IMG/VR virus record: IMGVR_UViG_3300014208_000023 | Coordinates: 224,001 to 288,000 of that record | Length of the DNA: 64,000 nucleotides | Reading direction: 5' to 3' (one strand) | From: a virus | Lineage: Duplodnaviria > Caudoviricetes | Shown here: positions 3,626-49,495 of the stretch, piece by piece | How positions within the stretch are numbered: position 1 is the stretch's first letter | Layout: each line of letters opens with the position of its first letter | Notes under the pieces: generated by a model | Database searches by the model: none | What the model was told of the DNA's origin: nothing | The model's input: the letters and a program-made list of their open reading frames with translations, nothing else | Made by a program: the position numbers and the translations under genes

Positions 3626-5500
3626 TTATGGAGCTGGAGGTGGAGCCGCTGGCGGAGTCCCGGCCGGAGGTGGCGCTCCGCCTTCTGGCGTAGGCGCTCC
3701 TGGTGGTGGTCCGCCGGAAGGAGGCGCCCCAAGGCTTCCAAGATCTGGAATCGCTCCCAAAGGCCCACCGCCTCCTCCTGGCGCTCCCATTCCTCCACCC
3801 ATGCCGCCATCTGCTGGCGCTCCACCTGGACCACCGGCCCCAGCTTCGTATGGGCTATCTGCAGCTACGGCAGAGTCAGTTATCTCTGGAATATCATCAT
3901 CTTCACCAAGGGCACGAAGTTCATTAAGTGACATTTTGGCAAGATTTTCTTTTTCTTTCTTGCGTATAGCCTCGTTAATATCTTCTTTTCGTATTTTGCG
4001 AATCTCTTCTTCGCCCTCTAGCCCCAATGAATCATATAGAGTTTCTCTGGAAACACGCTTATCTTCTCCAGTTGATAACTGCAGAAGAATATTGATGTAG
4101 TCCATCGTATCGAACATCGTAAGACGGTTCCACTCAACTTCTGGAACAATTAGCTTCTTTTCACCGTCTTTGTATTCGTAGAAATCATTTAGCCTTGAGA
4201 TTGGTGCAAAGATCTTATTCTTTAACCAAGCAGACATCATATTACGGAATTGCATGTAGCGCTGACGAAGAACGTCTAGAGAAATGCCTCCGTTAGCATA
4301 ACTGATATCTCCTCCGCCAGTCATTACTACTTCTGGAATCATAAGTCCCATAAAAATTTCTTTTAATAGCTGAGTGATATCGCCAGAAGTATCTATGATT
4401 GCAGAGTTAGCTCCGATGCGCTCTACCGTAACCGCTTCGTGAGTGAAGATTTTGAAATTCTTATCGGCAAGAGATTGGGCCCAGGCGTTTCTCCAAACAT
4501 CAAGGTCTTCTGGAGTTGGCTTGTAATCAGCGCTTCCAACTTTCACTAAAGTAATTGGATTGATTAAGTCTTGGGCCTGTGTGAATTTGCATTCACGAAT
4601 CTGATCGAAAAGCATAAGCTGACGGAAACAACTGACTGGCAGCCCGGTTCCGCGAGTTTCATATGCACTTAATTTTCTAGCTAAATGTGAGATATAGAAA
4701 TTATCTAGAGGTATATTCTCGCCGCGTTTGATGTGTTCTATAATAGTTGGATTTATTTGTTTGCGCTGCTGAATATCAGAAGGCTTATTGGAGAACACCA
4801 GCCGCCGTAACTCGTCGTCCGGCTTTAACATTATGATTGGATCTGAATGAATAGATGTTTTCTTTACTATGATATAGTCTGGGTTCTGAAGAACAATACG
4901 TCTCCATTTAGCATTATTTTCATCAAGATCGCATTGTGGGAAAGCTTCTCCCAATAGCCAATATTCCTGGGCTACTTCAGTGCAAACATTAGCTAACCCA
5001 ATTTCTTCATTCATTTGATTGAAAAAGTTTTCAATTTTTGGATGAGCACATTTTATATTAAGTTTGCTGATGGGATATGTGCTATGAAGATTTATAGCAT
5101 TTTGAACGAATGATTGAAGGGCTAGGAATGATCTGCTCCAAGCATTAATGGTTGCCCTATCTCGTGGAAGATTAAGATTGCTATTTAGCCAGAGCGGAGA
5201 ATATATATCTGGCATCTGTCTCAATGCACTTGATGCCCCTCTCCAGTCGCCAGAAGCAGCGGTAGATGATGTTACCTGAGCGTTTTTAACCTGACCAACT
5301 GCTGTAGATAAAAACGAATTAGATGTCGTAGAAGTTTGATTGCTAGAACCATCACGCCATAGTCCGCGCTCATATTCCTTCGTTAAGGTTCCTTTTCTGT
5401 AATCAGAAACTTGATGATAAACCCTAGAGTTCATTTTAGAAGGCTGCTCTTTTGGAGGAGTCGGAACATTTATAACTGGTGGATTTTTACGATTACTCAT
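3626..5500 (-). CDS. Phage portal protein with Gly/Pro-rich C-terminal tail
   Basis: Directly downstream of terminase; portal-like core (EYWLLGEAF, IVLQNPDYI, AYETRGTGLPVSCFRQL, EIFMGLMIP); size typical. Confidence 0.8.
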   Translation of the reverse strand: MSNRKNPPVINVPTPPKEQPSKMNSRVYHQVSDYRKGTLTKEYERGLWRDGSSNQTSTTSNSFLSTAVGQVKNAQVTSSTAASGDWRGASSALRQMPDIYSPLWLNSNLNLPRDRATINAWSRSFLALQSFVQNAINLHSTYPISKLNIKCAHPKIENFFNQMNEEIGLANVCTEVAQEYWLLGEAFPQCDLDENNAKWRRIVLQNPDYIIVKKTSIHSDPIIMLKPDDELRRLVFSNKPSDIQQRKQINPTIIEHIKRGENIPLDNFYISHLARKLSAYETRGTGLPVSCFRQLMLFDQIRECKFTQAQDLINPITLVKVGSADYKPTPEDLDVWRNAWAQSLADKNFKIFTHEAVTVERIGANSAIIDTSGDITQLLKEIFMGLMIPEVVMTGGGDISYANGGISLDVLRQRYMQFRNMMSAWLKNKIFAPISRLNDFYEYKDGEKKLIVPEVEWNRLTMFDTMDYINILLQLSTGEDKRVSRETLYDSLGLEGEEEIRKIRKEDINEAIRKKEKENLAKMSLNELRALGEDDDIPEITDSAVAADSPYEAGAGGPGGAPADGGMGGGMGAPGGGGGPLGAIPDLGSLGAPPSGGPPPGAPTPEGGAPPPAGTPPAAPPPAP

Positions 5501-24964: not shown

Positions 24965-25264
24965 ATGACAGTATTTACAGGAGAAGTATTTATAGCGCCA
25001 GCAATAGCGTTTGCCAACATAGATGGATATGGAGAATTCTTATCATATGTGCAACAAACTAATGCAAATCAAGATGGATATGGAGCTCCAAAATTTACAG
25101 CAATAGCATCATCAAACATTAACCCAATTCCACATTATAAGTTGTCATGCGAAGACAATACTGGATTAAGGCATTATTGGGTAGATACTAGCGTTTCTTT
25201 AATTAATGCTCCGGCAGGATTTACCTATGTAATAGGCACATTCGTTAATCAGGGCAAATTCTAG
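24965..25264 (+). CDS. Small hypothetical protein closing the plus-strand cassette
   Basis: Start corrected to ATG 24965 (MTVFTGEV), 99 aa; preceded by the same junction element as array genes. Confidence 0.65.
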   Translation: MTVFTGEVFIAPAIAFANIDGYGEFLSYVQQTNANQDGYGAPKFTAIASSNINPIPHYKLSCEDNTGLRHYWVDTSVSLINAPAGFTYVIGTFVNQGKF

Positions 25265-48467: not shown

Positions 48468-48512
48468 TTCGTCTTACGGAGACTATATCATAAGATCCGC
48501 GCTTCTCGACAA

Positions 48513-48719
48513 TTATTTTGATTTGCCGCAGCCACAACCTTTTGGCTTAACGTCCGACAATACTACAAATCTCTTTAGACATATAGAGCACATTCTTGAT
48601 TGGGTAGAGCACATCTCGCAAATACAAGAAAGATTATTGGCTATTAATCCCTGACACCGAACACATATTCTATTATTCGTCTCAATGATTGCTAGTGTAG
48701 AACATTTTTCACAAAACAT
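48513..48719 (-). CDS. Small Cys-rich protein
   Basis: CEKC, CVRC, CICEMC, CSIC, GCGCG. Confidence 0.6.
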   Translation of the reverse strand: MFCEKCSTLAIIETNNRICVRCQGLIANNLSCICEMCSTQSRMCSICLKRFVVLSDVKPKGCGCGKSK

Positions 48720-48750
48720 AATTCATTCCTATAATATACGGTTTAATTAA

Positions 48751-48786
48751 ACAAAAGGGGCGTATGAAGTAAATCATACGCCCCTT
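48751..48786 (-). terminator. Rho-independent terminator
   Basis: 13-bp perfect stem AAGGGGCGTATGA/TCATACGCCCCTT, 6-nt loop, T-rich tail on minus strand. Confidence 0.85.
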
Positions 48787-48807
48787 AACTAACACTTACA
48801 TTAATTA

Positions 48808-48909
48808 CTAGCTCTTTGTTTTCTTAGCCTTTTTCTTTGCTTTCGTGCTCTTCTTTGAGCTGGAGCTACTGACGGTTTTAGTTGCTTTTTTTGAATTACC
48901 TTTTTTCAT
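48808..48909 (-). CDS. 33-aa lysine-rich peptide (not in ORF track)
   Basis: MKKGNSKKATKTVSSSSSKKSTKAKKKAKKTKS; AGGAGGTG SD directly upstream; TAG TAA stop followed by terminator. Confidence 0.7.
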   Translation of the reverse strand: MKKGNSKKATKTVSSSSSKKSTKAKKKAKKTKS

Positions 48910-48988
48910 ATACACCTCCTTTTTCGGATTTTTTTTACGGAGAGAATCAGATAAACTCTCCTATTCATATACCGAAGTATAGGAAGTT

Positions 48989-49495
48989 CTAGTCAATATT
49001 CGTAAATAAATTCCAACTTGAGTGCCAATCTTCTTGCTGGGGAGACACTACTAGATAGCCGGCTGGAGTTTCTGGTTGTTTAACCAACCTCATTCCAATT
49101 TCATTGGGAAGTCTTGATCCCTTTTTCTCATTACAATCGTGACAAGCCGCAACACAATTTTCAAACGTATTGCTTCCTCCGCGACTTTTTGGAATAATAT
49201 GATCTATTGTGACCTGGGAGGACGTTAAACTTTTTCTGCAATACTGGCACCCATAGTTATCTCTCTTGAAAACTGCGCTGCGAGAGAAAACCATTTTAAT
49301 GAAATTACGAACAATTTTATTTTTGAGCTTCAATACGGCAGGAAGCTCAATAAATCCAGAAGAATGGAAGTATTTTACATCAGCCCATAATGATATTACA
49401 TCAACCTTGTCTTCTTTTAACAAAAGTTTTATTGCTCTTTTGTCTGGTATAAAAGCTAGCGGCTGATAGTCGCCATTAAGCAACAGCGTCTTCAT
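48989..49495 (-). CDS. HNH endonuclease (McrA-like)
   Basis: TLLLNGDYQPL; RDNYGCQYC...TIDHIIPKSRGG...NCVAACHDCNEKK. Confidence 0.85.
   Translation of the reverse strand: MKTLLLNGDYQPLAFIPDKRAIKLLLKEDKVDVISLWADVKYFHSSGFIELPAVLKLKNKIVRNFIKMVFSRSAVFKRDNYGCQYCRKSLTSSQVTIDHIIPKSRGGSNTFENCVAACHDCNEKKGSRLPNEIGMRLVKQPETPAGYLVVSPQQEDWHSSWNLFTNID

Follow-up and report, generated by a model that had tools for sequence, protein, structure and literature searches.

Is a 33-codon, lysine-rich open reading frame (ORF) lying between conserved genes of a tailed phage a gene in its own right and, if so, what might its product do? The question is raised by positions 48751-48985 of a 64,000-nucleotide stretch of viral DNA (Duplodnaviria; Caudoviricetes), referred to throughout as the window, which comprises bases 224001-288000 of the 428,320-bp IMG/VR virus record IMGVR_UViG_3300014208_000023, a genome with direct terminal repeats. 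The window has a G+C content of 39.7% and its genes lie mainly on the minus strand. The first-pass annotation, made from the sequence alone, had described the ORF, a Shine-Dalgarno (SD) sequence, a double stop codon, a 13-pair terminator and two upstream hairpins as a self-contained transcription unit with a structured leader, and each of these elements was found in place (Table 1). The anatomy of this cassette, its exceptional SD and terminator, its recurrence at the same syntenic position in relatives and the conservation of its charge are observed, and it is highly probable that the ORF is a genuine small coding gene overlooked by ORF cut-offs, its translation being predicted from the sequence. 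One interpretation of these data, regarded as reasonably probable, is that the cassette is a moron-like mini-gene for a disordered polycation that would be abundant and would bind DNA or RNA.

The SD of the cassette, AAAGGAGGTG, offers 10 contiguous bases complementary to the 3' tail of 16S rRNA, and its duplex with the anti-SD was calculated at -16.1 kcal/mol, compared with a best value of -13.1 kcal/mol and a median of -4.4 kcal/mol for the 478 ORFs of at least 100 aa in the genome. The genome is otherwise SD-poor: the hexamer AGGAGG stands upstream of 2 of 378 long ORFs, and the proportion of G at positions -11 to -7 rises just to 0.25-0.29, indicative of weak SD use genome-wide. Sites with at least 8 nt of contiguous anti-SD complementarity number 25 in the genome, and two of them, the cassette and one other, precede an ATG-initiated ORF of at least 30 codons, the cassette being the best SD-plus-start context of all. 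The SD had been described as the most complete in the window; it is in fact the strongest in the whole 428-kb genome. The terminator hairpin (-22.5 kcal/mol) ranks fourth in the 428 kb, and the whole 66-nt 3' untranslated region (UTR) folds at -25.9 kcal/mol (z = -6.5). Terminators of this class are also found behind the gene for the major head protein (phrog_2522, 1.6e-78) and behind an SSB gene, both of which code for abundant proteins. As to the earlier claim that the unit is built for very high expression, its signals are indeed typical of strong expression, and the product would presumably be abundant. Note that an SD 10-mer of this kind is expected by chance ~0.7 times per genome, so the decisive evidence is the recurrence of the cassette at the same slot in two distant relatives.

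Related megaphage loci were collected with a deformylase query (25 loci) and by methylase alignment (~58 more). The gene order methylase, HNH endonuclease, slot, zinc mini-protein and deformylase is common to 28 distinct genomes, including that of the window, and in three of them a polycation cassette was found directly after the HNH gene, namely in the window, in L003 (the same contig as L296) and in L278. In each case the ATG follows the SD by 5-9 nt, the ORF has 28-33 codons, of which 41-46% specify Lys and none specifies Arg or an acidic or aromatic residue, hydrophobic residues are almost wholly avoided, and a terminator of -22 to -26 kcal/mol follows. On a maximum-likelihood tree of the concatenated MT-A70 methylase, HNH and deformylase sequences of the 28 genomes, the three carriers fell on one side of a branch with a Shimodaira-Hasegawa-like approximate likelihood ratio test (SH-aLRT) support of 96, and one change suffices for the distribution of the cassette on this tree of flanking genes. 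In two relatives without the cassette (L039 and L062) the next gene begins 24-28 nt after the HNH gene, which argues that the unit, a block of ~190-270 nt, comes and goes as one piece. No further copy was recovered by a two-peptide profile run against 28 related records (five of them complete), the exact SD-ATG pattern led to no other Lys-rich ORF in 25 relatives, and 80 metagenome loci with HNH relatives contained no such peptide. Across 80 relatives' loci of ~7.7 kb, only two other Lys-rich small ORFs passed the filter, and both resembled chance frames.

The first-pass annotation had made its claim depend on conservation in relatives, and what recurs in L003 and L278 is charge, length, SD and terminator; the sequence does not. 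An alignment of the peptides shares the initial Met and five Lys columns, and the pairwise identity of 36-38% is Lys-driven. The make-up shifts from Lys/Ser/Thr in the window to Lys/Ser and then to Lys/Ala/Pro at constant charge and length, which is the pattern expected of a charge-driven binder. The L278 copy reaches an equal charge with the GC-richer Ala and Pro codons, indicating that A-richness is not the cause.

Lysine accounts for 42% of the window peptide, which has no Arg, Asp, Glu or aromatic residue and ends at its C terminus in Lys, Ser and Thr, without hydrophobic residues. Its Lys codons are dispersed over the whole ORF and are not clustered. AlphaFold predicted no secondary structure and no fold (predicted template modelling score, pTM, 0.17). 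The peptide had no family match in Pfam, NCBIfam (E up to 1) or PHROGs, and the Pfam and NCBIfam result was the same for all three copies. No match was obtained with phmmer against 1.84 billion representatives, a protein atlas search returned low scores only, and the DNA of the 2.4-kb region had no match in annotated phages. The tblastn comparison that had been proposed as a check for a conserved peptide likewise found nothing in 50,697 phage records. An exact look-up among 15 billion called proteins did not return the sequence, in keeping with the remark that standard ORF cut-offs would miss it. The winged-helix domain of linker histones (Pfam Linker_histone, E up to 1) was not matched by any of the three peptides, which at 28-33 residues are too short to hold the globular domain of a linker histone.

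Taken as a polycation gene, the locus might work as follows. The cassette would be an insert between the HNH gene and the zinc mini-protein and deformylase genes, possibly with a weak promoter of its own, and its extended ribosome-binding site would allow the peptide to be made in large amounts. The lysines would bind polyanions non-specifically, the likeliest target being phage or host DNA, and bound DNA would be neutralised and then compacted or coated, while phosphorylation of Ser and Thr could modulate the binding. Selection would keep the length of 28-33 residues, the net charge of +12 to +14, the absence of Arg, acidic and aromatic residues and the strong expression signals, and not the sequence. 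Conservation of charge, length, SD and terminator with the sequence left free is what would be expected of a translated, disordered, charge-driven polyanion binder, and it would be unexpected for a structured RNA, a pocket-fitting peptide or a chance frame. The histone H1- or protamine-like function that the first-pass annotation had proposed gains from the third syntenic copy, that of L278, which is rich in Lys, Ala and Pro with PAKK-type repeats; the binding that it implies is presumed from composition.

Several observations weigh against this reading. The cassette is surrounded by replication and translation genes rather than head genes, a placement that gives no pointer to packaging. The SD of the major head protein gene is a weak one of the AGGA type; high expression in this phage is thus not simply signalled by an extended SD, which may have another meaning. 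A frame that stays open for 33 codons is no rarity in itself where the sequence is A-rich (~0.13, an estimate). The carrier branches of the flanking-gene tree are long (0.9-1.35), the grouping could be due to long-branch attraction, and there are three instances only. Some 24 relatives have no cassette in the same slot, which makes it dispensable. Finally, the similarity of the cassette DNA outside the SD is no greater than that of shuffled sequences, so that DNA homology is not significant, and the homology of the three peptides is not demonstrable by sequence comparison within such a low-complexity region. The flanking proteins of the three carrier genomes are 46-66% identical; set beside cassette DNA that behaves like shuffled sequence, this suggests that the kept features reflect selection and not recent common descent.

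The leader and the promoter were considered separately. Hairpin 1 is not part of the minimum-free-energy fold and has no counterpart in L003, and hairpin 2 is not conserved in relatives. The leader fold is moderately unusual in the window (z = -3.1) and not in L003 (z = -0.3), and no conserved RNA structure was found among the cassettes. A two-state leader that sequesters the SD was tried as a candidate, as a CUUCCU/CCUUC element is paired with the SD in the minimum-free-energy folds of the window and of L003 alike, and was rejected: the pairing is no stronger than in shuffled leaders with the SD held fixed (p = 0.06 and 0.27 for the window/L003 pair). The structured leader is thus not upheld as a functional element.

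A phage promoter-like motif, TGATATATA, occurs with at least 8 of 9 matching positions upstream of 8.5% of genes, compared with 1.5% of random 60-nt windows, and is frequently located 2-25 nt ahead of a start codon. The 6/9 match before the window cassette is at background, since 58% of random 60-nt windows reach 6/9. In L003 an 8/9 match lies 53 nt before the ATG and a further 8/9 promoter-like motif follows the terminator, and the L278 leader contains TGCTATATA, an 8/9 match read by eye. A promoter belonging to the cassette is therefore plausible in the relatives and weak in the window, where the peptide may be read mainly from the methylase-HNH transcript. The notion of a 'self-contained transcription unit' agrees with the terminator and with a cassette that is present or absent as a block, while the promoter of the window copy is at most a candidate. 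Hairpin 1 overlaps the only promoter-like -10 element, and so may lie outside the transcript from the cassette's own promoter. As a separate observation, the motif TGATATAT(A/C) occurs 2-25 nt before many start codons genome-wide, for example that of the def gene of the window near 48490. Many transcripts should consequently have very short leaders or none, which fits the weak use of SD sequences.

Other explanations of the same locus were weighed against these data. It could be that the peptide binds the ribosome or rRNA and retunes host ribosomes as part of a phage translation toolkit that includes a bS21 homologue and peptide deformylase. The deformylase gene is 350 nt away from the cassette and the bS21-like gene ~3 kb away, and in size and charge the peptide resembles the ribosomal micro-proteins bS22, bL37 and Thx. 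Such micro-proteins, however, fit fixed rRNA pockets and keep their sequence, whereas Lys/Ser gives way here to Lys/Ala/Pro; moreover, the peptide is without Arg or aromatic residues, no NCBIfam or Pfam model (bS22, bL37 and Thx included) was matched at E up to 1, and most of the relatives that share the deformylase block are without the cassette. A ribosomal role is accordingly rated as unlikely. The same conservation pattern bears on the view that no peptide is made, the stretch being a small non-coding RNA or the 3' UTR and terminator of a methylase-HNH operon, with ORF and SD arising by chance in an A-rich spacer. A-rich sequence does yield Lys-rich frames, a second reading frame of the window ORF is likewise open, the chance expectation for the SD given above is not small, and no promoter of its own can be demonstrated in the window. 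A search of Rfam 15 gave no match in the window at the gathering score, the best sub-threshold hit being L20_leader (23.6 bits, compared with the gathering score of 58.7 bits). What tells against this view is that SD, spacing, ORF length, charge and terminator recur jointly at the slot in two genomes with saturated neutral sites, and that the L278 copy keeps its charge with other codons; in addition, no RNA structure or Rfam family supports it, and the 24-28 nt that follow the HNH gene in cassette-free relatives indicate that no spacer is needed there. Of all the accounts considered, this one has the least chance of being correct. The two suggestions of the first-pass annotation that touch on these views, a ribosome-binding peptide and a regulatory RNA, are conceivable and not favoured.

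Another possibility is that the act of translation matters and the product does not, the ORF serving as a Lys-codon leader or sensor (of tRNA-Lys supply or of free anti-SD) that controls read-through of the terminator into the zinc mini-protein and deformylase genes, or else as a sink for ribosomes or anti-SD. A strong SD, a short ORF rich in one residue and a terminator before co-oriented genes make up the classical architecture of an attenuator; 14 of the 33 codons specify Lys, and ARAGORN identified 16 tRNA genes in the genome, including one for tRNA-Lys(UUU). No tmRNA was found by ARAGORN on the whole genome G000 (G000 25058-25131 lies outside the window). No antiterminator was found: pairing of upstream RNA with the 5' arm of the terminator gains -4.7 and -3.5 kcal/mol (p = 0.19 and 0.74 compared with shuffled ORFs), while the competing terminator hairpin has -22 to -23 kcal/mol. 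Lys codons occur throughout the ORF, the 8/9 motif behind the L003 terminator means that the downstream genes need no read-through, the L278 peptide preserves charge and not the codon pattern, and all three copies avoid codons for hydrophobic and acidic residues. This account is highly improbable, and attenuation was set aside, the 5' arm of the terminator having no upstream partner better than in shuffled sequences and the Lys codons being dispersed.

A further suggestion, drawn by analogy, is compatible with a DNA-binding product and concerns the SD itself. Bacteroidia ribosomes have their anti-SD buried by bS21, bS18 and bS6, and only an extended SD, such as that of rpsU, is read, the readers being ribosomes that lack bS21 (PMC7797042, PMC9976891). 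A bS21 with basic extensions is commonly encoded by huge phages (PMC7162821), and the phage studied here encodes an extended bS21 homologue of its own. The extended SD could act as a gate that limits translation to ribosomes with a free anti-SD, either lacking bS21 or loaded with the phage bS21, a kind of control shown for rpsU in Flavobacterium; DNA would thereby be coated or condensed at one particular stage of infection. The proposal is speculative and quite improbable as it stands. Its logic could extend to a micro-ORF with the identical SD in Bacteroides acidifaciens and to the matching viral contig, where the micro-ORF lies beside tail genes. A trigger-factor scan of bacterial genomes, run to identify the host, gave no match.

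Table 1. Features of the cassette locus in the window, in the direction of transcription, and the three syntenic copies of the cassette.
Feature	Position	Strand	Details
MT-A70 methylase gene	50252-49476	-	
HNH endonuclease gene	48989..49495	-	168 aa; Pfam HNH_5 at 7.7e-19
Peptide cassette (flagged stretch)	between HNH gene and zinc mini-protein gene	-	
Hairpin 1, TATAC-TTCG-GTATA	48968..48981	-	5-bp stem, UUCG loop; read directly
Promoter-like element CGGTATATG, weak	48965..48973	-	56 nt before ATG; 6/9 match to phage motif TGATATATA
Hairpin 2, GGAGAG / CTCTCC	48939..48961	-	11-nt loop; in minimum-free-energy fold
Extended SD AAAGGAGGTG	48913..48922	-	5 nt from ATG
ORF, Lys/Ser/Thr-rich peptide	48811..48909	-	33 codons; ATG at 48909
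Tandem stop codons TAG TAA	48805..48810	-	
Intrinsic terminator	48745..48786	-	13-pair stem, 6-nt loop (48786-48755), then T-rich tail
Zinc-ribbon mini-protein gene	48513..48719	-	68 aa; downstream edge of slot
Peptide deformylase gene, with SEC-C tail	48467-47949	-	Pfam 7.6e-28
Window copy of cassette	48909-48811		33 aa, K14 S8 T4 A3, +14; SD 10 nt, -16.1 kcal/mol; TAG TAA; terminator -22.5 kcal/mol
L003 copy of cassette	L003:3787-3873		29 aa, K12 S12, +12; SD 13 nt, -21 to -22 kcal/mol; TAA TAA; terminator -23 kcal/mol
L278 copy of cassette	L278:4775-4858		28 aa, K13 A8 P5, PAKK-type repeats, +13; extended SD with one mismatch, -13.4 kcal/mol; single TAA; terminator -25 kcal/mol

Within the window, the ATG of the peptide lies 79 nt from the stop codon of the HNH gene, and the HNH gene adjoins the MT-A70 methylase gene in ~27 relatives too. 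In most relatives the slot measures 340-730 nt (mostly 420-560 nt) and holds two unannotated small genes, which the polycation cassette replaces or accompanies in the three carriers. One encodes, on the same strand, a Cys-rich protein of 63-110 aa starting with C-x-C-I-V-C-A-x-E-F; the other is an acidic ORF of ~50 aa on the opposite strand, with an FFPFI-like start, an IIIEL end, a net charge of -4 to -11 and a GGAGG SD. An example of this two-gene slot is L266:4810-5349, and L263, L264, L268 and L283 are others among the ~24 relatives; the genome of the window has lost both genes. Each of the three cassettes has the pentamer TTAAG directly 5' of its terminator stem or at the stem's foot (window 48781-48790, L003 ~3890-3897, L278 ~4878-4883), which may be a chance effect of AT-rich sequence or a remnant of common origin. 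In another relative of 473 kb that is otherwise SD-poor (G023, IMGVR_UViG_3300050821_013430), strong ribosome-binding sites of the AGGAGGTG type cluster at one end, at ~398-422 kb (loci L052-L060); the genes there are seemingly higher in G+C, and the segment may be foreign or misassembled.

Two further ORFs with Lys-rich tracts were observed outside the window. A 242-aa protein without Pfam or PHROG match (L259:163-888, minus strand; genome 216662-217399) has an internal tract of ~30 Lys, Ser and Thr residues that resembles the peptide in make-up. The part N-terminal to the tract is acidic and the C-terminal part Cys-rich, and the gene of this protein is followed by a strong terminator. A 54-residue basic ORF with nine consecutive Lys lies at genome ~342090-342266 on the minus strand.

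Similar micro-ORFs were sought in cellular genomes with a pattern consisting of the identical 10-nt SD followed by Met-x-Lys-Lys-x-x-Lys, applied to bacterial and archaeal genomes at one genome per species. At least 121 matches were obtained, the pattern biasing the first residues of an ORF and not the remainder. Among the 121 matches listed, 15 are Lys-rich ORFs of 8-45 residues composed of nearly only Lys, Ala, Arg and Thr. The look-alike ORFs in these matches come from Planctomycetota, Patescibacteria, Omnitrophota, Binatota and Bacteroidota, and several have strong downstream hairpins. Polylysine-like ORFs of 12-45 aa behind AAAGGAGGTG are found on contigs L346, L381, L391, L407, L415, L419, L440, L441, L442 and L451, which belong to the first four of these phyla, and the downstream hairpins of several of these bacterial micro-ORFs have -26 to -30 kcal/mol. 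The architecture of the bacterial cassettes is similar to that of the phage; however, they are cellular, whereas the window copy is phage-borne and Lys/Ser-rich, and homology is not demonstrable. The likeness of layout suggests that the cassette may have been taken over whole from a host, which would also account for an SD so unlike the rest of the phage.

A scan of viral contigs returned ~10 tiny Lys/Gly-rich ORFs with portal, terminase or tail genes as neighbours. Such ORFs, 18-37 aa long, behind the identical 10-nt SD, beside tail-fibre, portal or terminase genes and in several cases ending in Cys, are found on the unrelated IMG/VR contigs L192, L194, L197, L239, L245 and L246 and on L356 (B. 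acidifaciens DSM 15896). The 18-aa ORF of L192 is identical to one in the B. acidifaciens genome, a lineage that otherwise ignores the SD. No annotated relatives of these look-alike phage micro-ORFs were found.

If the peptide is made, tailed phages would, to our knowledge, have in it their first described example of a free, Lys-only polycation, and, if the polycation reading is true, it would give a phage with a 428-kb genome a minimal, protein-based means of neutralising or coating DNA or RNA during infection. It would extend to viruses a class of polylysine micro-genes that is apparently widespread and overlooked by gene callers; slot, charge, length and expression signals could serve to recognise such genes where sequence similarity is lacking. 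The system should be simple to test, with a synthetic peptide or with the 250-nt cassette. An extended SD set in an SD-poor genome would also give a way into the question of mRNA sorting by bS21-encoding huge phages.

The expression signal of the cassette has a counterpart in the extended SD of rpsU, the gene for bS21 in Bacteroidia, for which the mode of the duplex energy is near -20 kcal/mol (PMC9976891, PMC7797042). Like that of rpsU, the cassette SD is rare and unusually long (10-13 nt; -16 to -22 kcal/mol) in a genome that hardly uses SD sequences, and a bS21-like gene is only 3 kb away. The phage differs in that it does use the SD weakly (G enriched at -11 to -7) and in that the product is not bS21.

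The product is best compared with the basic tails of H1-like proteins. DNA binding by the tails of H1/H5 and of HupB/MDP1 is independent of sequence and compacts the DNA (PMC5676037, PMC10810275), and PAKK/KAAK is a DNA-binding motif of H1/H5 and HupB (PMC5676037). In common with the C-terminal tail of H1/H5, HupB/MDP1, Pseudomonas AlgP and chlamydial Hc1/Hc2, the phage peptides have ~40-46% Lys, are disordered and contain no acidic or aromatic residues, and the L278 copy likewise has PAKK/KAPA-type repeats, the likeness being one of composition only. Unlike these proteins, the phage peptide is free, has 28-33 residues without a folded DNA-binding anchor domain and is phage-encoded, and the window copy is Lys/Ser/Thr-rich and has no Pro. 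No Pfam or NCBIfam match to chlamydial Hc2/HctB or the other named bacterial H1-like proteins was obtained at E up to 1.

Among viral proteins, protein J of phiX174 and other Microviridae and the adenovirus core peptide mu are, like the peptide, virus-encoded, very small and highly basic. Protein J is rich in Arg, Lys and Gly, with a basic N-terminal part and a hydrophobic C-terminal capsid anchor. The J protein of phiX174 coats the viral DNA and neutralises its charge, at ~120 copies per replicative-form DNA (PMC13386984). By contrast, the phage peptide is Lys-only, has no anchor and no Pfam or PHROG match, and belongs to a double-stranded DNA tailed megaphage, in which its gene sits with replication and translation genes and not with head genes.

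With regard to gene organisation, the closest parallel is the moron. The morons of HK97 and lambdoid phages are independent promoter-gene-terminator units between two conserved genes. The cassette is likewise one block between genes that are otherwise adjacent and has a strong terminator of its own, with a promoter motif graded as described above (8/9 in L003, 8/9 by eye in L278 and 6/9 in the window). It differs from a moron in being far smaller and in seeming to be old within its clade and not recently acquired. Polycationic nucleic-acid binders are known from both viruses and bacteria; what would be new here is their packaging as a moron-like phage cassette.

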